Source of the DNA: Promethearchaeota archaeon Loki_b32
GTDB lineage: Archaea; Asgardarchaeota; Lokiarchaeia; Sigyniarchaeales; SOKP01
Length of the DNA stretch: 27,063 nucleotides
Assembly: GCA_005223125.1 (NCBI GenBank)
Contig: NJBH01000043.1
Span: 1-27,063, forward strand
Direction: 5' to 3'
Positions 6 to 23,066 of this stretch are shown piece after piece. The translations under genes and the position numbers were made by a program. The notes below the pieces were generated by a model. That model had not been told where the DNA came from. It searched no databases and saw only the letters and a program-made list of their open reading frames with translations. The first letter of the stretch is position 1, and every line of letters starts with the position of its first letter.

Positions 6-389
6 ATGTTAAAATGGTTAGAAAAATATTTTACACCTGAAGGAGCTATAAAAGAAGCACCAGAAGTTGAAGAAAAACCAGCTGAAGGTGAAGAAAGAAC
101 TTTAGAAACTAAGTATAAGCTAGCTTGTACACAATGGGAAGATAACCTGCAAGATTGTATAAATTATGGTGAAGAACTAAAATCTAAATATGGCAGCCCA
201 AAATTTTATAGTACAATTAATAGCGCGTATATTTGTAAATTAGGATTAAGTTATTATCAAGAAGATAGATATAAAGAAGCTTATGAAACTTTTATTATAT
301 TAATTGGAAAAGAAGGTGAAAAATATTTATGTGACCGTGTTCCTTTAACAGCTCGGAGAGATTTTGCTTTGGGTATGATGGCTAGTTAG
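6..389 (+). CDS. Hypothetical protein, probably the C-terminal part of a longer ORF, with one TPR-like helix pair
   Basis: The frame is open to the window edge (GAA precedes the ATG at 6). It has an E/K/P-rich linker and a TPR-like segment, LGLSYYQEDRYKEAYETF. It ends 5 bp before the next ORF. Confidence 0.5.
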   Translation: MLKWLEKYFTPEGAIKEAPEVEEKPAEGEERTLETKYKLACTQWEDNLQDCINYGEELKSKYGSPKFYSTINSAYICKLGLSYYQEDRYKEAYETFIILIGKEGEKYLCDRVPLTARRDFALGMMAS

Positions 390-394
390 TTTAA

Positions 395-1000
395 ATGAAA
401 CTCCTTAAAAATAAAAAATTCTATGTATCAATTTTAATAGATTTTTCTTTTTTATTTATTTTATACTTTTTTGTTTTATTTATTATTAAGAAAATACAAA
501 GTTATGCTTTAAAATTACAAGACTTTGGTCTGAATTTAAAACAAGCTGAGTCTATAATACAACAGAATGCCAGTTTATTAGATTATAATTTGTTATTAAA
601 TAATGTAGAACTAATAAATCAGGTGATTCAGAAAGTTTTAATCTTGTTCTTTTTATTATTGGTTGGAAGTTTTTTGATGTATATTTTATTCCAAGGAACA
701 CAGTGGAGTTTTATTTTAAGCAATCTTAAAAATTTCAAGAAATATTTTTGGAAATTCAGTTTAGTAAGTTTTGTCAGTTTTTCATTAAGTTTGTTGTTTT
801 TATATTATATTCTATTAAATGTTAGAATTATATTTGTTAATTATTTAACTGGTGTTTCTTTTTATAGTCCTATAATTAAGATTGTTTTATTAATTGTTTT
901 AACTGAGCCAAGAGCCTTTGCAATAGCTTCTGCAGCTTTATTTTTTTCGGCTACTATTATGGTTGCCATTATGGTTTTTTATTTACATGATATATTATAA
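395..1000 (+). CDS. Multi-pass membrane protein of unknown function; the C-terminal ~33 aa are probably artefactual (antisense of the topA fragment)
   Basis: Four or more long hydrophobic segments. The tail TEPRAFAIASAALFFSATIMVAIM is the reverse-complement reading of the topoisomerase N-terminus at 969-900. Confidence 0.55.
   Translation: MKLLKNKKFYVSILIDFSFLFILYFFVLFIIKKIQSYALKLQDFGLNLKQAESIIQQNASLLDYNLLLNNVELINQVIQKVLILFFLLLVGSFLMYILFQGTQWSFILSNLKNFKKYFWKFSLVSFVSFSLSLLFLYYILLNVRIIFVNYLTGVSFYSPIIKIVLLIVLTEPRAFAIASAALFFSATIMVAIMVFYLHDIL
862..969 (-). pseudogene. topA: 5' fragment of a type IA DNA topoisomerase (TOPRIM N-terminus), truncated at a sequence junction
   Basis: Manual translation from the ATG at 969 gives MATIIVAEKNKAAEAIAKALGSVKTINKTILIIGL* (TAA at 864-862). 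The first 21 aa match the hhhAEKxxxAxxIAxxLG start of Topo I/III. AT-rich promoter-like DNA lies upstream (970-1132). Confidence 0.75.
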
Positions 1001-1132
1001 TATAAGTAAATTTTCGAAGATCAAATAATATATTATAACAGTTAAATAAATTACTGGTTGTTATTAAAAGAAAAATACTGATTTATTATTTTGATTATTA
1101 AGAGATCTTCAATTCTTTTTGGCTCCACAATT

Positions 1133-4100
1133 TTAAATTGGTAGCGTGAATGTGAAGGTTGTTCCTTTATTAATTCCATCTGAATCAGCGTGAATTTCAC
1201 CACCATGAGCATTCACTATTCCCTTGGTGATGTAAAGTCCTAATCCTGTACCACTATCCTTAATATGGATACTCTCATTAGGAATTGGTTGTTTAATTCT
1301 CTCAAATTTTTTGAATAACTTTCCTAATTCTTCTTCAGTGAGTCCAATTCCATTATCCTTTACTTCAAAAAGATATCCTTCATTCATTTTTTTAGCTGAT
1401 ATTTCAATCCAACCATAATCAGGTGTAAATTTAATAGCATTTGAGATTAAATTAGTAAAAACAGTAAAAATACGTGTCGTATCCACATTTAACATTATTT
1501 CATGATTGATATTTAATATTATCTCGAGATTTTTCTCATTAATCAGATAACTTAATTCATCAAGACAATCATTTATGATATTACTTACATTAATTTGTTC
1601 TTTTTGAAGTTGTAATTTATCTTCATCAATTTTCATGACTTCTAAAAGTTGATCCATTAAAACTTCTAATCTATTAACGTTTCTCTGCACAGTTAATAAG
1701 TCAGTTGTAATTTCAGGATTAAGTTGACTTCTATGTTTCATCAAAATATAGTCTGTATAACCTGAAATAGAAATTAATGGTGTTTTTAATTCATGTGCGG
1801 CCATTGAAATGAAATCATTTTTTACCTTATCTAGTTTTTTTAATTCAATATTTTGTATTCTTAATTTCTTCTCAGATTCTAATAACTCCTGTTCTAATCT
1901 AAATTTCTCAGTAATATCAGAGAACGTTCCTTCAATGGCAATTGGGTTATTATCATCATCTTTTATTAAATGAGCATTCACTTGAACAACAATTTGTTCT
2001 CCGTTTTTCTTTTTAAAGGGTACTATATAATTTCTAATAAATCCATTTTCAAGTAATTCTCCGATATATTCTTCTCTGTCAGCCATATCTTCCCAAAAGA
2101 ATGGTACATCTTTCCCAAATAACTTTTCAAAGGGTTCATATCCTGCAATTTTAACGAATGCGGGATTATGATATATTATTTTACCCTCCCATTCTACTTT
2201 ATAATATCCCTCATCTAAATTAGTTATCATATTTCGAAAATTTTCTTCGGATTCTTTCAATTGATTTTCAATTTTTCTACTTTCAGTGATATCTCTTATG
2301 ATTGTGATAATTTGGGTAACTCTACCTTCATTAAAGATTGGGATTTTCCGAGTTTCTGTAAATATTTCTTTTTCATTTAATAATATGCTGCCTTCTTCAG
2401 TAAGAAGAATTTCTCCAGTATTAAAAACTTGTTCATATTCATTGCGAACTTCATCAGGTAAGAACGGAAATGCTTCAAATACATTTCGACTTACGATCTT
2501 CTTATCAAGCCCTAAATCAACGAGCCAATGGTCAAATGCAGCATTTGAAAGAATTATCCTTAATTCTCTGTTAACAACATGTAGTGGATCATTTAAAGAA
2601 TTAATAGTTGTACGATATTGCTCTTCAGATTCGATTAAATCTTTAGTTCTTTCTAATACTTTTTGTTCCAATTCTCTATTTAACGTTTTTAGATCTTCTT
2701 GAGATTTTTGTAACTCTTGTTCAGCAATTTTTTTCTCCGTAATATCTTGTATTAATACTTGAAAAAAAGTCTCACCCCCAATTTCGACAAGTGAATCATC
2801 AATACTTATCCATATTAAACGTCTGTCTTGTGATCGAGAAATTTGAACCTCGATTGGTTCTGGGACAATTCCATTTAGGATATCTTGATATCTTTGCTTA
2901 AATAGAGATAAAGCTTTTTCAGGTTTTATACTCACATCTAAGAAATTTTTATTTATGAGATCTTCAATTTTTCTATTAAATAATTTTTCAGTGGCGGGAT
3001 TACAATCAATTATTACCCCTTTTTTATTGATTAAAATGATTGAATAGGATGAACTCTCGAATAAATGTCGATACTTTTTTTCAGATTCCGTTAATTTTTG
3101 TTCAGTTAATTTCCTAAGTGTTATGTCTCTAGCTAAATTTAAGATTTTGGTTACTTTTCCGTCTTCTTTCAATGGTACAGCATTTACTTCATATTCAAAA
3201 ATTTCACCTCGAGTTGTTTTGGCCTTGATTTCAACTCCTTTAATCTCTTTCCCTGCTTCTATAGCAGCCCCAACCTCCCTTAATTCATTAATATTATCAC
3301 TAGCTAAAAAGTGGGAATAATTCACACTTTTAACCTCTTCCAATTTCATTCCAATGCGTTCTAATAATGCGGGATTCATATCTAAAATATCTCCTTTTAC
3401 GTTAGTTAAAAATATATAATCTGGACTTGAATTGAATATTGTACGATACTTTTCTTCTGATTCTTTAATTTTCTGCTCCAAGATAAATTTCTCTGTAATA
3501 TTTCTCGCTAAACCACTAAAACCAATTTTAATACCTTCTGAGTCATATATTAAATATACAGAAGATTCACAAATAACTAAATCTCTATTTTTTTTTCGAA
3601 ATTGATATTGAAAATTGGATTTTGGTTGGGAGGTTTGATAAACTTCATTATAAACTCTAAAAATTTTGTTTTTATTTTCTTCATCTACAAAATTACGATA
3701 ATTTGTACCGAATAATTCACTTTTAGAATATCCAATAAGGTCAATAAAAGCATCGTTGAAAAATGTAAAATTCCCTTTTAAATCGACTTCAAAATAAGTC
3801 TCTTTAATATTTTCTAATATACCACGATATTTTTCTTCAGATTCTTTTAATTTTTGTTCACCAATTTTACGAATTGTAATATCTTCATAGGTAACTAGGA
3901 TGCCTACTACATTACCTTTTGAATCATGTAGAGGAATTCTGTTAACCTCATACCAAGATTGCTTACCTTTGACAAAATTTAATGATTCAATAACATTATA
4001 TTCTGGTTTATCATTTCTTATAACCTCGTGTTCTTTATTTTTTAAAGATTGTAAATTCTCTTTATACCAAATTAGATCTTCATCTTTTCTTCCAATAATA

Positions 4101-13805: not shown

Positions 13806-15296
13806 TTAAAGATTGTATATTGGGTAAAATTTCTCCTCAATTCGTTTAATAAAGTAATCGGGATTTAGATCTTCTCCGCTTATTCTCTTGATTAAGTCAG
13901 AAGGTCGATAAATTTTTCCATATTGATATACATTTTCATTTAAATAATCCAGTAGATTTTTAAATTCTCCTTTCTTGAAATCTTCAGCTAAGTTGGGCAT
14001 TTCTTTTAATGCCTCATTGTAAATTTGTGCACCATAAAGGTTTCCCAGCGCGTAGGTTGGGAAGTAGCCGAAATCACCACCCCAGTGAGGGTCCTGTAAG
14101 ATACCCTCTGCATCATCCGGGGGAGTAATTCCTAATAATTCTTCCATCTTTTCATTCCATAATCCAGGTAACTCATCTACTTGAATATTCTCCTCAATTA
14201 TCATTTTTTCTAATTCAAACCTTAAAATGATATGTAATCCATAAGTAACCTCATCTGCTTCTACCCGTATAAAAGAAGGCTGAACCACATTCATAGACCT
14301 GTAAAATTCTTCCATAGAATAGCCTTTTAAATTTTCAGGAAAAGTTTTCTGAAATTTTGGATACCAATATGTCCAAAATTCTTCGCTGCGGCCAACAATA
14401 TTCTCCCATAAACGACTTTGCGATTCGTGTATTCCGAGGGATGTTCCTTCAGCTAATAATGAATCTTGAATTTCTTCTTTAAATCCCATTTCGTAGAGAG
14501 CATGGCCACATTCATGAATTGTTCCAAAAATACAGGCAGGTAGAAAGTTTTCCCATATTCTAGTTGTGATCCTGGTATCTATTGATGATAATGATGCAGT
14601 AAATGGATGGGTACTTTTATCTTGACGACCAATATTAAAATCAAAATTTAATTTCTTGATTATTTCAATACTCATTTGCCACTGCTTTTCAGGATCATAG
14701 TATTTCTTTAAAATAGATTGATCAGGTTTATCAGAAGAATTGTCCAATTTAGTGATAATTTTTATTAGTTTAGACTTAAGAGCGTTAAAAATTTTTGAAT
14801 ACCACTCGTAAGTTGAGCCTGGTTCATATATATCTAATAAAGTTGAGTATAGCGTAGGTCCTGTGTTAAGGTGTTCGGCATACTTTATTCTTAAGTTAAT
14901 CATCTTTTTAAGAAATGGCTTAAATATTGAAAAATCTTTTTTTTCCCTTGCTTTTTGCCAATTCATATTTCCTAAAGATGCAGTTTTCGCAATCTCCAAA
15001 ACTAAATCATCAGGAATTCTCGTAGCATGTTTATATTCTCTTTTTGCTTCCCTTATCATCGCCAATTCAGTTTCACTCAAATTATCTAGTTTTTTAGCGT
15101 TTTTTATTAATTCACCAGTTTTATCAGATTTTATTCTTGAGTGAATTAATTTTCTTATAAGTGCGTGTTGTTCAGCTCTTCCTTTAACAGACCCTTTAGG
15201 CATATTAACTTGTTGATCCCAGCCTAAAAGCTCTCCAATATAGCTCAATCTCATTATTTCTGTAAAATGTTCCCAGAGCTCTTTCATTTCGTTCAT
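13806..15296 (-). CDS. M32-family metallocarboxypeptidase (copy 1)
   Basis: LGWDQ, HPF, DTRITT, HECGH (HExxH), HESQ, IRVEADE, QDPHW and GYFPTY. Confidence 0.96.
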   Translation of the reverse strand: MNEMKELWEHFTEIMRLSYIGELLGWDQQVNMPKGSVKGRAEQHALIRKLIHSRIKSDKTGELIKNAKKLDNLSETELAMIREAKREYKHATRIPDDLVLEIAKTASLGNMNWQKAREKKDFSIFKPFLKKMINLRIKYAEHLNTGPTLYSTLLDIYEPGSTYEWYSKIFNALKSKLIKIITKLDNSSDKPDQSILKKYYDPEKQWQMSIEIIKKLNFDFNIGRQDKSTHPFTASLSSIDTRITTRIWENFLPACIFGTIHECGHALYEMGFKEEIQDSLLAEGTSLGIHESQSRLWENIVGRSEEFWTYWYPKFQKTFPENLKGYSMEEFYRSMNVVQPSFIRVEADEVTYGLHIILRFELEKMIIEENIQVDELPGLWNEKMEELLGITPPDDAEGILQDPHWGGDFGYFPTYALGNLYGAQIYNEALKEMPNLAEDFKKGEFKNLLDYLNENVYQYGKIYRPSDLIKRISGEDLNPDYFIKRIEEKFYPIYNL

Positions 15297-15447: not shown

Positions 15448-16944
15448 TTATAATCCATAGATAGGATAAAACTTATTTTCTATATATTTCATGAAATAAT
15501 CAGGATTTAGGTCTTCCCCAGTAACTCTTTTTATTAAATCACCAGCTCTATATACGCTTCCATGTTGATGAACATTCTCTCTTAAGTAGTTCACTATGCC
15601 GGAAAATTCACCTCTTTTATACTCTTCGGGTAAATTTGGTCTTTCTTCTAGAGCTTTATTGTAGATTTGTGCTCCAAACAGAGTTCCTAAGAAGTAAGTT
15701 GGGAAGTATCCAATCATTCCCATGCCCCAGTGTATATCTTGTAAAACCCCTTCAGCATCATCTGGAGGAACAATTCCAAAAAATTCCTCAAACTTAGAAT
15801 TCCAAACTTCTGGGAGCTCACTTATTTGAATTTTACCATCTATAAGATCTTTTTCGATTTCAAATCGCAAAATAACGTGTAATCCATAAGTTACTTCATC
15901 TGCATTTACTCTTATAAAAGAAGGTTGGACACAGTTAATAGACCTATGAAATTCTTCCAATGGATAATTTTTTAAAATTTCCGGAAAATATTTTTGAAAA
16001 GTTGGATACCAATAGGTCCAAAATTCCTTGCTTCGACCAACGAAATTTTCTAGAGTCCTCGATTGAGATTCATGGATTCCAAGTGAAGTACCTGTGCCTA
16101 GTATTGTATCATGTAGTTCCTTTTTAATGCCCATTTCATAGAGTGCATGTCCACACTCATGAATTGTTCCAAATATACATTCGTTAAGAAAATCTTCTTT
16201 TGTTCTTGTAGTAATACGGGTATCCATAGATGACAAGGAGGATGTAAATGGATGAGTTGATCGATCTTGACGTCCTGCTTGTAAGTCAAAATTCAATTTT
16301 TTTATTATCTCTACACTTAATTCAAATTGTTTATCGACATCATATTTTTTCCTTAGGATTGAATCATCTGGTTTATTGGAAGATGTATTTAACTTTTTAA
16401 TAAAATCAGTTAATTTTGGTTTTATTGGATTAAAGATGTTAGAAATCCACTTGTACGTTGCGCTAGGCTCATATAAATCAATTAAAGTGGAATATAAATC
16501 GGGGAAAGTTCCAAGTTTCTCTGCTTTTTCTTTTTGTAATTCAACTGTTTTTTCCAATAGTGGTATAAATGATTTGAAATCTTTATTTTGTCTTGCTTTT
16601 TGCCAAACTTGTTGCGACAATGCAGCAGTTTTTGTTATTTCTACAACTAATTCTTCCGGTAATTTAACTTCTTGATCATAGGCTCTTTTTGCTTCTCTTA
16701 ACATTGCAGCGTCAATATCATTTAGATCTTTGCGTTTTTCAGCTTCTTTTATTAATTTACTTGCCTTGTCTGATACTAATCTCTGATGTATAAGTTGTGA
16801 TAGAAGCGCACTTTGTTCTGATCGTCCTTCCACAGTTTTATACCCCATCATGTTAACTTCTTGATCCCATCCCAACAATGATTGTACGTAATTCAATCTC
16901 ATTATTTCGGTAAAGTAATCTTTAATTTCTTTCATTACGCTCAT
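15448..16944 (-). CDS. M32-family metallocarboxypeptidase (copy 2)
   Basis: LGWDQ, HPF, DTRITT, HECGH, HESQ, IRVNADE, QDIHW and GYFPTY. Confidence 0.96.
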   Translation of the reverse strand: MSVMKEIKDYFTEIMRLNYVQSLLGWDQEVNMMGYKTVEGRSEQSALLSQLIHQRLVSDKASKLIKEAEKRKDLNDIDAAMLREAKRAYDQEVKLPEELVVEITKTAALSQQVWQKARQNKDFKSFIPLLEKTVELQKEKAEKLGTFPDLYSTLIDLYEPSATYKWISNIFNPIKPKLTDFIKKLNTSSNKPDDSILRKKYDVDKQFELSVEIIKKLNFDLQAGRQDRSTHPFTSSLSSMDTRITTRTKEDFLNECIFGTIHECGHALYEMGIKKELHDTILGTGTSLGIHESQSRTLENFVGRSKEFWTYWYPTFQKYFPEILKNYPLEEFHRSINCVQPSFIRVNADEVTYGLHVILRFEIEKDLIDGKIQISELPEVWNSKFEEFFGIVPPDDAEGVLQDIHWGMGMIGYFPTYFLGTLFGAQIYNKALEERPNLPEEYKRGEFSGIVNYLRENVHQHGSVYRAGDLIKRVTGEDLNPDYFMKYIENKFYPIYGL

Positions 16945-17106: not shown

Positions 17107-18675
17107 TTAGGTCATTTGTTCTTGTTTAACAAAAAAATTTGCTGCTAATTCAATATCTTCAATTGTTATTGGTCTCTCTAAAGATTTTTCTAATTCTGTT
17201 ATCAAGTTTTCGCATAATTTTAAGCTAAGAGAACTTCCTTTCTGAGTTATTAATTTTTGTAACTCTTTGGTAAAATCAATTACTAATGGTTTTCTTATAT
17301 CTTCTTTTAATTCTTCATGTGCTCCAAATAACTCCATTGGCATTTTTGCTGTAGGTTTTATTTCTACTTTTGATTCTTTAGTTACTTGTTTTGGAATTGA
17401 AATTGGTTTTATGATTTTTAATTTTGATTTTTGGCTTTTTATTGGTTTTATTTCTTTTTCTTTATCAAGTTTTTGAAAAGATACCAAATTCTTCAAGGAT
17501 TCTGGAGATGCGGTGGGTTTTTCTTCAGTTAAAGATTGTTGATTTATGGATTGAACTGAGGAATCAGGACTAGGAAGTGGTTTTACAGTAACTCTCCGTG
17601 TAAACTTTAGAGGTTTTGCTATTTCGAATTCTTTTTTTCTATCAAATTCTTTTCTTTTTTCACTTTCTTTTTTAAGTTGGAGATTTAATTCATTAATTTT
17701 CTTTTCTAAAGCTTTAGTATATATTATATTTTGATAAGATTTACTAATATTGAGTAATTCTTTATAACTCGCTAATGCTTGAATCTTTTTTCGTTCCAAG
17801 ATTAAATTATCAGCATTTTTTATTAATTCTGGAAAATTTGAAGGTATTTTCTTTCTTAGACCAAGAGCCTTCATGATATGTTGATAAATTTCTGATTTAG
17901 CAGCAGGAGTGTTTAATGATATTTCTTCAAAATCAGAAATACTTAATTCATTCTTTATTCTTCTGATATCGCCATCTTCAACTAAATCCCTTTTGTTTCC
18001 AATTATTAATAATTTAGAAGCACTACTTTCCATTTTATGGAGTTTCAAGAAATGGTCCAGCATTCTTAAATTGTAATTTGCCAAATTAAACAATAGAATA
18101 ACTAAGTCAGATCCTCGTACAAATTTAGACCATAAGAGAGAGAAATTATCTTTTAATTGGAAATCCCATATATCAAAAAAAATACCATCTATTTCTAAAA
18201 TTGATGTTTTTGCAAAATCCATATGGATTTTTTCTTCGCCACTTCTTAGGAGATTATAGAGAGTCGTCTTTCCAGCATAAGCTGGTCCAATTAAAGCAAT
18301 TTTAGAATGAAGATCTTTTTGAATCTGGTTTAAAAATTCATTGAATTCATTATTTGCATTACTAGGTTCATTTACTTTTGAAGGATTTGGAAATAATTCT
18401 GTGAATTTATCAATTGTTTTTATCATAATCTCATCGAGATATTGAAGTGAATCAACTAGATCTGTGATAAATAGAAAATATAAATTACCAGATGCTCTAT
18501 GAAATATTTGAAAATTTGATACAGCTCTTTGAAATGTCTTTCCAGGCATAGGCATATCAATGTATTTCTGAATAATCTTTTTAACATTATTCAATTCATC
18601 ATTTCCAAGAGCCATAGCATAATCTTTAACAAATAAGAGTTCTGACTCTAGAAAAATATGTAGTTGTCTTAACAT
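17107..18675 (-). CDS. Longin-like domain fused to a Ras-superfamily (Arf/Rab-like) GTPase domain, followed by a helical bundle, low-complexity linker and small C-terminal helical domain
   Basis: G1 GPAYAGKT, G3 position WDFQL (degenerate), G4 GNKRD. The N-terminal ~120 aa have a longin-type pattern (LHIF...FQIFHRASGNLYFLFITD...helix...FTELF). Confidence 0.8.
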   Translation of the reverse strand: MLRQLHIFLESELLFVKDYAMALGNDELNNVKKIIQKYIDMPMPGKTFQRAVSNFQIFHRASGNLYFLFITDLVDSLQYLDEIMIKTIDKFTELFPNPSKVNEPSNANNEFNEFLNQIQKDLHSKIALIGPAYAGKTTLYNLLRSGEEKIHMDFAKTSILEIDGIFFDIWDFQLKDNFSLLWSKFVRGSDLVILLFNLANYNLRMLDHFLKLHKMESSASKLLIIGNKRDLVEDGDIRRIKNELSISDFEEISLNTPAAKSEIYQHIMKALGLRKKIPSNFPELIKNADNLILERKKIQALASYKELLNISKSYQNIIYTKALEKKINELNLQLKKESEKRKEFDRKKEFEIAKPLKFTRRVTVKPLPSPDSSVQSINQQSLTEEKPTASPESLKNLVSFQKLDKEKEIKPIKSQKSKLKIIKPISIPKQVTKESKVEIKPTAKMPMELFGAHEELKEDIRKPLVIDFTKELQKLITQKGSSLSLKLCENLITELEKSLERPITIEDIELAANFFVKQEQMT

Positions 18676-18878: not shown

Positions 18879-19832
18879 ATGCCTTTAAATGAAGAACACA
18901 TTTTAAAATTTTTAGACAATGAATCAGATACTAAAGCTAAATCTGAATTAATTAGTTTATTAAAGACGCGAATAGATAAATTGTGTTTTGACGAATGTGA
19001 GCGAGATAGGATAACATGTACTTTACAGCCAAAATGCTCAAGAAGATTCTTGCTTAAATTGAGGATTAAGGGAGGACTCACTATAGATGATTTACCAAAA
19101 TTCTGTTATAGTGTTCATAAAGGTGTGGTTGAAAGATTCTTTCGAAATAAAACTGTTATTTATAGGCCATTTGATGCATATCTCTATATAATTGATTTTT
19201 TTGACATTTTCTTTCATGGGGATTATCGTAAATTAAATAAATTCGTTTCATTTAAAAAATGGGATGAAATTTTTAAGATATTTGATGATAGGATACAAAA
19301 TAGAAATGAAAATTTTGATTACTTATTAATAGATAATTACTTAATCATCAAATTTGACGACCGCTTACATATTGCCTTTTTAGAAGAAAAGTATGCCATT
19401 TGTAACTCTAATCGTGAAAATATTGCAAGTCTTGAATTATTATATGGGATCTGCAAATTACATGCTGCTCTATATTTTTCTGAAGTAAAATTAACGTACA
19501 TGACTTCTAAACATGTAGAAATTACTCTTAAAATACCTTATGATGTTTTAACAAAGATTTCAGAAGAACCCTCCATTGCAAACAATTCTAAAGCAGACCA
19601 ATATTTTTGGAATACTTTTTGGGAAGATCTTAATGCTTTAACACAATACTGTGATCAAATTAATTTGAATATAGATAAAAATCAAAATTTAGAAATAATT
19701 TTATACATCAGTCTTTTAACTAATAATTTTAATGAAGTAGGAGAGAAATTACCATTAAGATTTAGAGATTTACGATTAATATTTAATTTCATAACTCGAA
19801 TTTATACAGATTATTATATACTTTGGGTATAA
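18879..19832 (+). CDS. Hypothetical protein with an N-terminal Cys cluster
   Basis: 317-aa ORF with C-x3-C-x6-C-x5-C and a later CYSVH. No recognised family. Confidence 0.75.
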   Translation: MPLNEEHILKFLDNESDTKAKSELISLLKTRIDKLCFDECERDRITCTLQPKCSRRFLLKLRIKGGLTIDDLPKFCYSVHKGVVERFFRNKTVIYRPFDAYLYIIDFFDIFFHGDYRKLNKFVSFKKWDEIFKIFDDRIQNRNENFDYLLIDNYLIIKFDDRLHIAFLEEKYAICNSNRENIASLELLYGICKLHAALYFSEVKLTYMTSKHVEITLKIPYDVLTKISEEPSIANNSKADQYFWNTFWEDLNALTQYCDQINLNIDKNQNLEIILYISLLTNNFNEVGEKLPLRFRDLRLIFNFITRIYTDYYILWV

Positions 19833-19861: not shown

Positions 19862-21136
19862 ATGAGTGATGATAAGAAAGATTCTATAGAAATTACTCAA
19901 ATAAAAGATTTTGTGAATGATGGTAGATTTGATGATGCCGTACAAATATTTGCTCTTTACATTGGAGACGCTACTGAACAAGAATATTTAGATAGGCTTG
20001 AAGATATGATTGAAACTCTTTTAACATTACATGGTGGACGTACAGTATTACGTTTCTTGATTGAAAACCTCATTATTGATATACCATCTTTATTGGAAAA
20101 CCTTTCAAAGAAGGATTCAGTATTGCGATATACCTTTTTATTACTATTAAGAACGATTTGTGAGAAAGAGTGTAATCTTTTTCTTCCTTATAGTGAGGAT
20201 TTATTAAACTCAGAGGATCCAAATGTTCGGGAAGCAGCATTACAATTATTAATCTATATGGCAGGTGGGGAAGCAACCATCGATGATGAAGTTCTTATAA
20301 AAGTTGTACTAACAAAATTATCTGATAAAAAGGATTTCGTTGTAGAAAAAGCTATTCAAGCTTTAAAAACAATAGGACAAAGATCACCTAAATTAATGAC
20401 AAAAATTCTAACTGAATATGCCAAAGAAATTTCAATTATCCCCGAGAATGAAGAAATAAGAGAATCAATTGATCAAATTTTAAAATCTATTGTTTCTGTT
20501 GATAAAATTGAAGAGATTGTAGAAGAAGAAATCATAAAAAAGGAATTTTTAGAAGATGAAATTGTGACTTCAGAATTAAAACCAGAAGAAGAGAGGGAAG
20601 GTTTTTTAAAAGAAGAATCAGAGATATTGGATAAAGAATTTGAGTTAAAAAAGAAAGAATTAGAGATTAAAAAAAGAAAATTAGAATTGGAAGAAAAAGA
20701 AAGGGAAATTGAGGAAAAAGTAATCAAAAAGAAAGAAGAAGTCCTTATGCTTAAAGAAGAAATCTTAGAAAATCAAAGTGAATTTGGAGTGAAGATTGAA
20801 AAAAAAATTCCTAAAAAACTCAAGAAAAAAGAAGAAGAAATTATTGACAAAGAGATTGAATTAAAAAAGAAGGACTTAGAAATCAAGAAAAAGAAATTAG
20901 AAATAGAAGAAAAAGAGAAAGAATTGGAAGAAAAGGAAATTTTAGAGAGAGAAAAGGTTTTAAAATTAAAAGAAGAGTTAATAGAAAAGGAAAAAGCACT
21001 ATCTCAAGTTGAACTAGAATTAAAACAAAAATCAATCGAGCAGAAACAACAGAAGATACAAGAAGAAGAAATGAAAAGAGTTGAAGAAGAACTTAAAAAG
21101 GCTCTACAAAAAGAGGAAGAAAGTAAGGAAGATTAA
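19862..21136 (+). CDS. HEAT/ARM-repeat protein with a long E/K-rich C-terminal coiled coil
   Basis: HEAT units LSKKDSVLRYTFL, LLNSEDPNVREAALQLL and LSDKKDFVVEKAIQALKTIG. The last ~200 aa are mostly E/K/L/I. SD-like AGAGGA upstream. Confidence 0.85.
   Translation: MSDDKKDSIEITQIKDFVNDGRFDDAVQIFALYIGDATEQEYLDRLEDMIETLLTLHGGRTVLRFLIENLIIDIPSLLENLSKKDSVLRYTFLLLLRTICEKECNLFLPYSEDLLNSEDPNVREAALQLLIYMAGGEATIDDEVLIKVVLTKLSDKKDFVVEKAIQALKTIGQRSPKLMTKILTEYAKEISIIPENEEIRESIDQILKSIVSVDKIEEIVEEEIIKKEFLEDEIVTSELKPEEEREGFLKEESEILDKEFELKKKELEIKKRKLELEEKEREIEEKVIKKKEEVLMLKEEILENQSEFGVKIEKKIPKKLKKKEEEIIDKEIELKKKDLEIKKKKLEIEEKEKELEEKEILEREKVLKLKEELIEKEKALSQVELELKQKSIEQKQQKIQEEEMKRVEEELKKALQKEEESKED
20612..20986 (+). 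repeat. Internal duplication in the coiled coil: two ungapped ~53-codon units with a 216-nt period
   Basis: EESEILDKEFELKKKELEIKKRKLELEEKEREIEEK...LKEEILE (20612-20770) aligns with KEEEIIDKEIELKKKDLEIKKKKLEIEEKEKELEEK...LKEELIE (20828-20986). Confidence 0.75.
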
Positions 21137-22176
21137 TCATCTCCAACATTTTCTTCAAAATCCATACTTGATTCAGGTTTAATCTCAATAGGAGTAGTAT
21201 GTAATCTTCTAACTATTTTCCTTATTTCCTCAATTTTCATACTCTCTGGAGGTAAATTAATCTGTACATCTTTCGCTAGTTTATAAGCTAATTCGATATA
21301 CTTGAGATCTTCTAAGAATTCGATCATTTGGATTTTGTAATCTACATCCAAAGTTCCTCCTGTATACTCCATTAGTTTTTCTTTAAGTAAAATATCAATT
21401 TTATCTGATCTCTCAACATATTTAACTTTCTTAACTAACTGCTTAAAACTATTCATAATATTATACATTTCAGATTTAGAATAACTATCAATGTTTTTTA
21501 GAACATAGAAAATATAAATTTCAGCTTTTTCCCATCTTTTAAATCTCAAACTAGCCTCAACTAATTCTAATAACGCTTGTTCATAAAGAAATTTACTTTC
21601 AACATTTGGGATGATTTTTTCAAAGATCCAATCAAGCAAATTAGGTTGATTAAACTTTTCAATTATATCAATTAAGAATTTCTCCACAGAAAAATATAAT
21701 TTAGCATTTTCCGTTTTTGTTGGAGAAAGAAAAGAAACTAAAGCATATTTAACACGTCCCATAGCATCTTCTAAATTTAGGGGTGTTTCAGCAAATTTAT
21801 AAAAAGCGGATTCCAAGATAGGAATTATTTTTTCTTTAGCATCAAAATCATAAACGAAATATTCGCCCCATGCAGGACTTGGTCCGGTAGTTTTCTTGGG
21901 TGTTGTTAACTTTTTCTCTCCTGGAGTACGTGGAGCTTTTTTCACTTTAGGTTTCTCTGCCTTTAATTTGTCTGAGATTTCTTTAACCTGTTCATCAGAT
22001 AAGAATTCCAGGACTATTTTATCCTTTTCTTTAGGAACAAACAATCTGAAATATACATCAGCATCTTCTTCAAATAAAGATTCTCTTAGGTCTTTTGGAA
22101 AAGTAATTCCTGTTTTTGTTTTCTTTACAACCTCCTCAAAAAACGGTTGATCATCGGAATTCTGATTTTCTTCCAT
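21133..22176 (-). CDS. Hypothetical protein: AbrB/SpoVT-like N-terminal domain, Lys/Pro linker and all-alpha (TPR-like) C-terminal region
   Basis: GITFPKDLRESL...VYFRLFV...DKIVLEF resembles the AbrB swapped-hairpin pattern. The remainder is helical. Its stop overlaps the convergent gene's stop at TTAA 21133-21136. Confidence 0.65.
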   Translation of the reverse strand: MEENQNSDDQPFFEEVVKKTKTGITFPKDLRESLFEEDADVYFRLFVPKEKDKIVLEFLSDEQVKEISDKLKAEKPKVKKAPRTPGEKKLTTPKKTTGPSPAWGEYFVYDFDAKEKIIPILESAFYKFAETPLNLEDAMGRVKYALVSFLSPTKTENAKLYFSVEKFLIDIIEKFNQPNLLDWIFEKIIPNVESKFLYEQALLELVEASLRFKRWEKAEIYIFYVLKNIDSYSKSEMYNIMNSFKQLVKKVKYVERSDKIDILLKEKLMEYTGGTLDVDYKIQMIEFLEDLKYIELAYKLAKDVQINLPPESMKIEEIRKIVRRLHTTPIEIKPESSMDFEENVGDD

Positions 22177-22261: not shown

Positions 22262-22855
22262 TTAGCCTGTAATATTAACTAACTCAATACCTCTGTGCTG
22301 GAAGTTTCGATCTATGAAACATAATATCGCGTGACCCTTGTGGCTATAAACTATAGGAACAGGATGAGATTCTGCATTTTCAATTACACTTTTTTTAATA
22401 AATAGAGGAAGAACTGTATTACACACTCTACATTCTACATGAATTCTTTTAACTAAATCTAAATCTGCAAAATTCATTATTATATCTTCAGTATTTTGTT
22501 TAAATCTCTCAAAAAGACCAGGAGAAAAATTACCATATGATAATATTACCTCTACATCATAGGCCTCATTAAATTTTAAATCTATATACTCCAGCAATGC
22601 TTCAAGTAACTGATATTGGACTCTTGGATTTGCTCCCGCTGTATATATAAGGTTATGCTTTCTGATATATACAATTTTCATATTCCCCTTGTCTTTATGA
22701 AAGAAAATATCACTTATGGGATTTTCCTTAATTATGTTTAAGTCTAGGTCAAATCTCCTCATAGATCTTGCTGGTTTCCACTCAAATAATGTAAATTTCT
22801 CATTACTAATATTAATAAATTCCAGGAATTCTGCAATATTTTTATATACGGACAT
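22262..22855 (-). CDS. Longin-like domain protein with a C-terminal CxxC/His (putative Zn-binding) domain
   Basis: GNMKIVYIRKHNLIYTAGA...LLEALLEYIDLKFNEAY...FERF resembles adaptin sigma/mu and TRAPP longin folds. The tail has CRVC...HKGH...FIDRNF. The ATG at 22855 follows the SD-like GGAGTGA. Confidence 0.7.
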   Translation of the reverse strand: MSVYKNIAEFLEFINISNEKFTLFEWKPARSMRRFDLDLNIIKENPISDIFFHKDKGNMKIVYIRKHNLIYTAGANPRVQYQLLEALLEYIDLKFNEAYDVEVILSYGNFSPGLFERFKQNTEDIIMNFADLDLVKRIHVECRVCNTVLPLFIKKSVIENAESHPVPIVYSHKGHAILCFIDRNFQHRGIELVNITG

Positions 22856-23066
22856 AAATTCACTCCATCCTACTTTCAGTTTTGAAATTATAAATTTTAA
22901 TCTATTTAAGTTAACAATCTTATGGTTGCACAAAAGATTTTCTAACTAACTAATGAGATTTCTCATATTTATATCTTTCATTAAGCAAGTTTATGTAAAA
23001 TGAACTTTTCGAATATTATATAATTTAATGAAAAGCTAATAAATTAGTGAACAATTATATTACCTC

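Follow-up and report, generated by a model that had tools for sequence, protein, structure and literature searches.

Some proteins of GTPase fold no longer switch: RGK proteins (for example Gem, whose G3 motif is DxWE) and AAGAB keep nucleotide binding, not switching, and the AAGAB pseudo-GTPase binds AP sigma, that is, it pairs with a sigma-type longin domain. Asgard archaea encode eukaryote-like small GTPases by the dozen, with partners and roles that are obscure. Fusions of longin and GTPase domains have already been documented in this group (Tran et al., 2024, PMC10933270; Liu et al., bioRxiv 10.1101/2020.10.19.343400), as have N-terminal longin domains on Asgard AArf proteins (PMC11914678), in agreement with an earlier sequence-only reading of the DNA considered here, which had described such fusions as known. 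This DNA is a stretch of 27,063 nt (hereafter the window; ~28% G+C) making up positions 1 to 27,063 of contig NJBH01000043.1 from Promethearchaeota archaeon Loki_b32 (GCA_005223125.1), an assembly of 4.13 Mb that is 95.5% complete. By open reading frame (ORF) list and translation, it includes a gene of 522 codons plus stop at 17107-18675 on the minus strand, to which strand all coordinates within the gene refer; motif coordinates were verified by translating each stretch. The encoded protein has five parts, from N- to C-terminus: a longin domain, an Arf-like pseudo-GTPase domain, a helical bundle, a linker, and a C-terminal module. Its nearest relatives are in metagenome genomes of Promethearchaeota/Promethearchaeia (Asgard, Lokiarchaeia-type), under source names such as “ADP-ribosylation factor-like protein,” “Rab family GTPase,” and “GTPase SAR1 family protein.” Searches for relatives returned full-length orthologues at 45–96% identity. 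The domain fusion itself is known, but a switch-dead branch of it, with a conserved gene neighborhood, appears to be undescribed; a full-text literature search found no paper joining pseudo-GTPases with Asgard archaea.

Judging from its sequence, this protein, which descends from the Asgard longin-Arf-like family, is probably a scaffold that holds nucleotide and does not switch. Sequence comparison indicates that the universal gamma-phosphate sensors (the switch-I Thr and the DxxG Gly) have been replaced in every orthologue, and that the replacement had a single origin. The RGK/AAGAB pseudo-GTPases provide an analogy, in that a GTPase fold whose G2/G3 sensors are gone lives on as a module for binding, and the PDB titles 2HT6 and 9DDT, which bear on this comparison, are among the Foldseek matches. 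There is no detectable specific homology between these and the focal protein, however; the likeness is one of mechanism, not of family membership.

The canonical Asgard longin-fused Arf-like and Rag-like GTPases share with the focal protein a longin domain, an Arf-like G domain, a helical hairpin, and an MLRQ or MLRE start. They differ from it in keeping the PT, DFAGQ, and NKQD motifs and in being multi-copy and widespread, whereas the focal clade has lost the sensors and the catalytic Gln, has linker motifs and a C-terminal module of its own, and is found in two families. An exhaustive search for relatives sorted them into three tiers: orthologues with DFQLK; proteins of 500–780 amino acids (aa) at 27–32% identity, also without the G3 Gly, which are the counterpart of the first tier in a sister family of the same order; and canonical longin-GTPases with GFSGVGKT, IPT, DFAGQ, and NKQD.

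The G domain itself (residues 123–275; 17851-18309) belongs to the Arf family. Pfam Arf (PF00025) scores 38 bits over residues 117–254, above its cut-off of 22.3, and also matches 26 of 26 orthologues; SRPRB, the SR-beta model, matches 18 of the 26 weakly. A family profile of the G domain compared with the PDB finds GerdArfR1 first (8OUN/8OUM, both entries verified as this protein; E 1.2e-8), then Arl8, Arf6, Arf1, and Sar1. Asgard ArfR and eukaryotic Arf proteins (GerdArfR1, Arl8, Arf6, Arf1) are thus the best matches, at E 1e-8 to 1e-5, and a W-D...L-W frame spanning the interswitch and switch II is common to both. In contrast to them, the focal protein has neither the switch-I Thr, a ligand of Mg and of the gamma-phosphate, nor DxGGQ, nor the Arf-type N-terminal amphipathic helix, which is linked to the interswitch toggle, the N-terminus being filled by a longin domain of 122 aa. 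Because these defining residues are missing, it falls outside the working Arf switch family.

Motif residues were tallied over 136 full-length orthologues (38–96% identity). G1, the P-loop GPAYAGKTT (residues 130–138; 18262-18288), is intact: G130, P131, and G135 are invariant, T138 is present in 135 sequences and T137 in 129, and residue 136 is Lys in 132 and Arg in four. Likewise intact is G4, NKRD (residues 227–230; 17986-17997), with N227 in 134 sequences, K228 in all 136, and Asp (110) or Glu (26) at position 230. A G5-like SLN follows at residues 253–255 (17911-17919), its S253 present in 133. The guanine-nucleotide pocket (G1 GxxxxGK[ST], G4 NKxD, G5 Ser) is accordingly intact at the sequence level, and binding is predicted; the conservation of the phosphate- and guanine-binding residues in G1, G4, and G5, together with the G3 Asp (Asp171, in 120 of the 136), indicates strong selection on them.

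The switch motifs are another matter. Hidden Markov model (HMM) alignment to ArfR and Arl8 places DFQLK on DxGGQ, and the degenerate G3 WDFQLK (residues 170–175; 18151-18168) replaces WDxGGQ. At the DxxG Gly position, Leu is found in 123 orthologues, Ile in 10, and Gly in none; the catalytic-Gln position holds Lys in 73, Arg in 36, Asn in 15, Gln in five, and Asp in four. The switch-I remnant, EEKIHMDFAKTS (residues 147–158; 18202-18237), was located by HMM alignments to the same two proteins and by the tally. The residue aligned with Arf T48 is Met152, Asp153, or Phe154, varying with the alignment, and there is no conserved Thr; the conserved residues here are E148, M152, D153, F154, and A155. 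The former switch II, WDFQLKDNFSLLWSKFxxGSD, which the degenerate G3 opens, is the most conserved stretch of the protein. A hidden G2 or G3 displaced by a few residues was considered and rejected: the residues separating W170 from G188 include no Gly, and those from E148 to K156 no conserved Thr. The sequence-only reading had reported intact G1 and G4 motifs, DFQLK at G3, and a switch I lacking the usual Thr. All of this is borne out; since the orthologue tally agrees, the observation applies to the entire orthologous group and is neither chance nor an oddity of one sequence. The reading had left it to an orthologue alignment whether the G2/G3 loss is conserved, and it is, in all 136.

In a quick maximum-likelihood tree of 65 sequences, the first and second tiers form one clade, with a Shimodaira-Hasegawa-like approximate likelihood ratio test (SH-aLRT) value of 97, which is sister to the clade of canonical longin-GTPases (95). 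Loss of the switch motifs therefore arose once. Decay has gone further in the second tier, where NKxD is lost in most proteins and the P-loop in one; in the first, four proteins carry the P-loop Lys-to-Arg change noted above. Such stepwise decay fits a conserved role without need for a GTP cycle.

Across 379 Asgard genomes surveyed (E up to 1e-40), a gene of the first two tiers was found in 115 of 128 and 10 of 14 genomes of two families in one order, usually with a single match per genome; none of the other 30 Asgard families yielded one at that E cut-off. Canonical paralogues match 202 of 268 Asgard genomes from many families, usually in multiple copies, with longin coverage unconfirmed in the distant families. 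Having turned up only in Lokiarchaeales-type genomes, the clade is a lineage-specific offshoot rather than the direct ancestor of a eukaryotic system. The source genome itself has two canonical paralogues with PT, DFAGQ, and NKQD, and similarity between these and the focal protein is full-length over residues 1 to ~340. One is 345 aa long (own-genome contig C32; L067, 1049-2086, plus strand). A Rag-like protein of 305 aa is encoded 26 bp upstream of it (106-1023, plus strand), with a G domain carrying DTPGQ and HKVD followed by a C-terminal domain; the two may possibly be a GTPase pair. The second paralogue, of 624 aa, has a Pro-rich linker and a coiled-coil tail (contig C30; L068, 1233-3107, minus strand), and a 163-aa ORF upstream of it (3159-3650, minus strand) looks roadblock/LC7-like by sequence.

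The N-terminal domain (residues 1–122; 18310-18675) has the longin fold, as had been proposed, and resembles sigma-adaptin; topology prediction, two structure searches, and a profile search agree on this. AlphaFold2 (AF2) predicts the order beta-beta-alpha-beta-beta-beta-alpha-alpha (strands at 2–9, 12–18, 48–52, 55–62, and 65–71; helices at 25–40, 77–94, and 106–122), with predicted local distance difference test (pLDDT) values mostly of 71–91. The top Foldseek matches are AP-2 and AP-1 sigma, mu N-terminal domains, COPZ1, SRX, VAMP7, and Tca17 (E 8e-5 to 2e-3). VIA-align gives synbindin at Z 13.8 (117 aa, 2.4 Å), the VAMP7 longin at 12.6, sedlin at 12.3, sigma2 at 10.4, and SRX at 9.6. A profile of 29 N-domains run against PDB sequences matches AP-2 sigma without gaps, residues 1–101 on 1–101, at E 6.6e-4, with the VAMP7 longin second at E 0.003–0.01. 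The Pfam family Clat_adaptor_s (PF01217) does not reach its cut-off of 22.5 bits, scoring 13.5 with the full protein and 16.2 with the domain alone; eight of 26 orthologues match it at E up to 0.1. Because the family profile does reach AP-2 sigma, kinship to the Clat_adaptor_s longins is likely, though distant, despite the sub-threshold score. The MLRQ start is strongly conserved: in the 29 aligned N-domains, R3 and Q4 never vary, and M1 and L2 are each found in 90% or more. Most canonical paralogues also have R3.

Several observations weigh against a scaffold that holds nucleotide and does not switch. We infer both nucleotide binding and the lack of hydrolysis from sequence; position 158 bears a hydroxyl in 124 of the 136 orthologues (Ser in 108, Thr in 16); position 175, that of the old Gln, is Lys or Arg in 109; and the synteny described below, being within one order, may in part be general gene-order conservation. 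With these residues at 158 and 175 and an invariant R3-Q4, non-canonical catalysis or sensing is possible. The protein could then be a working GTPase switch in which S158 or D153 senses the gamma-phosphate and catalysis is aided by K/R175, or by R3/Q4 of the longin domain, in cis or across a dimer; HAS-GTPases, and longin GTPase-activating proteins that supply an Arg finger, are comparisons for such machinery. It would be consistent with the intact G1, G4, and G5, the frequent G3 Asp, the extreme conservation of the old switch-II segment, and the persistence of the MLR start in most canonical paralogues. However, both universal sensors are gone together, whereas HAS-GTPases retain both, and in the syntenic orthologues of the sister family S158 and K175 are not preserved, nor is NKxD. 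AP-2 sigma also starts similarly (MIRF), which makes a structural role of R3 in this longin subtype probable. A non-canonical switch is thus considered unlikely, if conceivable.

Decay could also have gone to completion. AF2 is unsure around the P-loop, its Lys is Arg in 4 of 136 orthologues, and the sister family loses NKxD and, in one member, the P-loop, all of which would suit a fully dead, nucleotide-free GTPase fold that keeps P-loop and NKxD for folding alone. A ligand-free fold is hard to reconcile, though, with pocket residues (G130, P131, G135, K136, T137, T138, N227, K228, D/E230, and S253) that are near-invariant among orthologues of 38–96% identity, and it is rated quite improbable. 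Hardly any credence is given to the idea of an ordinary small GTPase, Arf-like or of the Rab family, that carries extra domains: the public names of relatives and the above-threshold match to Pfam Arf point that way, but neither the G2 Thr nor the G3 Gly nor the catalytic Gln is conserved (Gly in 0 and Gln in 5 of 136), the longin domain stands in place of the N-terminal amphipathic helix, and the same genome also encodes canonical paralogues whose motifs are intact. Where the sequence-only reading had put forward a pseudo-GTPase that binds guanine nucleotide and does not switch normally, the single-origin loss and the further decay of NKxD and P-loop in the sister family strengthen the pseudo-GTPase part; binding and non-switching stay at the level of predictions from sequence.

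The layout after the G domain is as the sequence-only reading had it, with helices in AF2 models at 281–348, disorder at 356–465, and helices again at 468–521. The first of these parts is a three-helix bundle with an extended third helix (residues 281–348; 17632-17835; AF2 pLDDT 88–98), the helices running from 281 to 293, 297 to 313, and 317 to 348 in a second AF2 model; an equivalent helical hairpin follows the G domain in the canonical paralogues. It had been described as MIT/TPR-like. Foldseek does return many MIT domains (katanin p60, USP8, Vps4, MITD1, NRBF2, and Sulfolobus Vps4), though at E values of 0.2–2, and in VIA-align designed bundles and TPRs score equal to or above MIT, at Z values of 7–10 that are generic for helical bundles. 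The description therefore holds as far as a generic three-helix bundle is concerned, not for MIT specificity; MIT homology was set aside as unproven, with the fold type alone supported.

A disordered linker rich in Lys, Ser, Pro, and Glu follows (residues 349–465; 17281-17631; AF2 pLDDT below 50–60), with its disorder at 356–465 (~110 aa) and a net charge of +9 there. Within it, the conservation profile of the 136 orthologues picks out three islands, LKFxRKxxVKPLP (17572-17610), VSFQKL (17464-17484), and KMPMELF (17326-17346). The protein ends in a module of three helices (residues 466–522; 17110-17280; pLDDT 93–96, helices at 468–521). Mean identity among the orthologues is 0.69 for this module, 0.67 for the G domain, and 0.42 for the linker. 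A search of the ESM Atlas with the module gave no usable match, and both fold searches with a model of the C-terminal part returned matches filled by the 281–348 bundle. Pfam matches of the module to SapB_1, TIP49_C, and HTH_Tnp_Tc5 were sub-threshold and treated as chance. The module also occurs, with a KMxMExF motif, on a 723-aa metagenome protein (P0179, residues 613–690, 67% identity) that is otherwise unrelated, has repeats within its N-terminal part, and matches no Pfam family; since it is present on this unrelated protein, the module moves between proteins. A 211-aa protein (P0234) consists of bundle, linker, and module alone, with neither longin nor G domain.

The genes around the GTPase gene were examined by comparing the window proteins with 66 species-level loci. 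Divergent from it and 203 bp away is a gene for a 317-aa protein of no known family (18879-19832, plus strand), which adjoins the orthologue in 64 of the 66 loci. Cys36, Cys40, Cys53, and Cys76 of this protein, and several Arg, Asp, and Tyr residues, are invariant across the two families, which may reflect a metal site. Searches of Pfam, the PDB, and the ESM Atlas found nothing matching the protein (Atlas scores all <0.9, TM <0.5). Next is a gene, present in 61 of 66 loci, for a 424-aa protein with a HEAT-repeat head (Pfam HEAT_2, HEAT, and Cnd1) and a charged coiled-coil tail (19862-21136, plus strand). Its profile matches are led by synthetic alphaRep/PBS-HEAT and INTS4, with AP-1 beta1 weaker at E 0.006–0.02; the head is by sequence of the generic PBS type.

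Convergent with the HEAT gene, their stop codons overlapping by 4 bp (21133-21136), is a gene for a 347-aa protein with a Lys/Pro linker between its N-terminal part and a helical domain (21133-22176, minus strand; 55 of 66 loci). The N-terminus looks AbrB-like from its sequence; no Pfam or PDB match was found. The last of the four linked genes (49 of 66 loci) encodes a protein of ~197 aa, in which CxxC and HxGH motifs are invariant among homologues (22262-22855, minus strand). It was listed as a longer ORF (22262-22933, minus strand) with a TTG start that is probably wrong; because homologues in 19 loci align from residue 25–37 (most from 27) of the long ORF, the true start is likely the Met at 22855. 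The sequence-only reading had called this protein longin-like and had suggested that the GTPase-like protein may act as an adaptor or as one half of a longin heterodimer, but hhalign found no significant similarity between this neighbor and the longin-GTPase family. The same comparison was negative for all three neighbors other than the HEAT protein, and their profiles gave nothing credible in the PDB. On the other side, directly downstream of the GTPase gene, are tandem paralogues of an M32 (Taq-type) carboxypeptidase (13806-15296 and 15448-16944, both minus strand). An M32 gene adjoins the orthologue in 61 of the 66 loci, with at least one copy at that position in these and both in several loci.

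The sister family provides a comparison. In two of the three loci examined, the 347-aa gene is directly upstream of the GTPase gene on the same strand, and these two are transcribed divergently from the genes for the 317-aa and HEAT proteins; the same four genes are thus still together in these rearranged loci. In the third, only the 347-aa gene remains beside the GTPase gene. That the four stay together despite rearrangement argues for a functional link over mere gene-order inertia, and conserved linkage makes the products of the linked genes candidate partners of the GTPase-like protein.

Two eukaryotic systems invite comparison with a longin domain and an Arf-like G domain so placed. AP sigma and COPI zeta are the closest relatives of the N-domain in both sequence and structure, and a HEAT gene lies two genes away; they are, however, free-standing subunits of heterotetramers, whereas the focal longin shares a chain with a G domain. 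We identified neither a mu-like nor a large-subunit orthologue, and the similarity of the HEAT neighbor to AP-1 beta1 is weak (E 0.006). In the signal recognition particle (SRP) receptor, the SRX domain of SR-alpha is paired with SR-beta (PDB 1NRJ and 5CK3), also a longin with an Arf-like G domain, and SRX is among the structural matches. There the two are separate chains, SR-beta is membrane-anchored and retains functional G motifs, and SR-alpha bears an NG domain; the focal protein shares none of these traits.

If the protein is a non-switching scaffold, its G domain would keep guanine nucleotide as a fixed cofactor, without the loaded-spring switch between GTP and GDP states. The longin platform, together with the frozen switch surface, would in that case offer permanent sites for binding, either in cis or within a dimer formed through the longin, and the flexible tail, with its three short motifs and portable C-terminal module, could tether partners, most plausibly the four linked gene products. 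A more ambitious proposal is that the longin and a nucleotide-locked Arf-like domain form the core of a Lokiarchaeales-specific five-gene machine with the HEAT protein and the three orphans; in this case, the frozen Arf surface might sit permanently on the solenoid, as Arf1-GTP and sigma do on the large subunits of AP/COPI. Such a machine is distinctly unlikely on present evidence, but would amount to an archaeal version, without a switch, of an adaptor or tether complex, whether as analogue or as offshoot.

Gene linkage yields a short list of candidate partners, and with it specific pairwise binding tests. Should a true complex of longin and HEAT proteins be found, it would inform how adaptor-like assemblies arise from longin-GTPase pairs. 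For the family itself, the focal clade would represent a branch in which the longin-Arf-like switch became a fixed module once and has been retained across an order, including in closed (single-contig) genomes.

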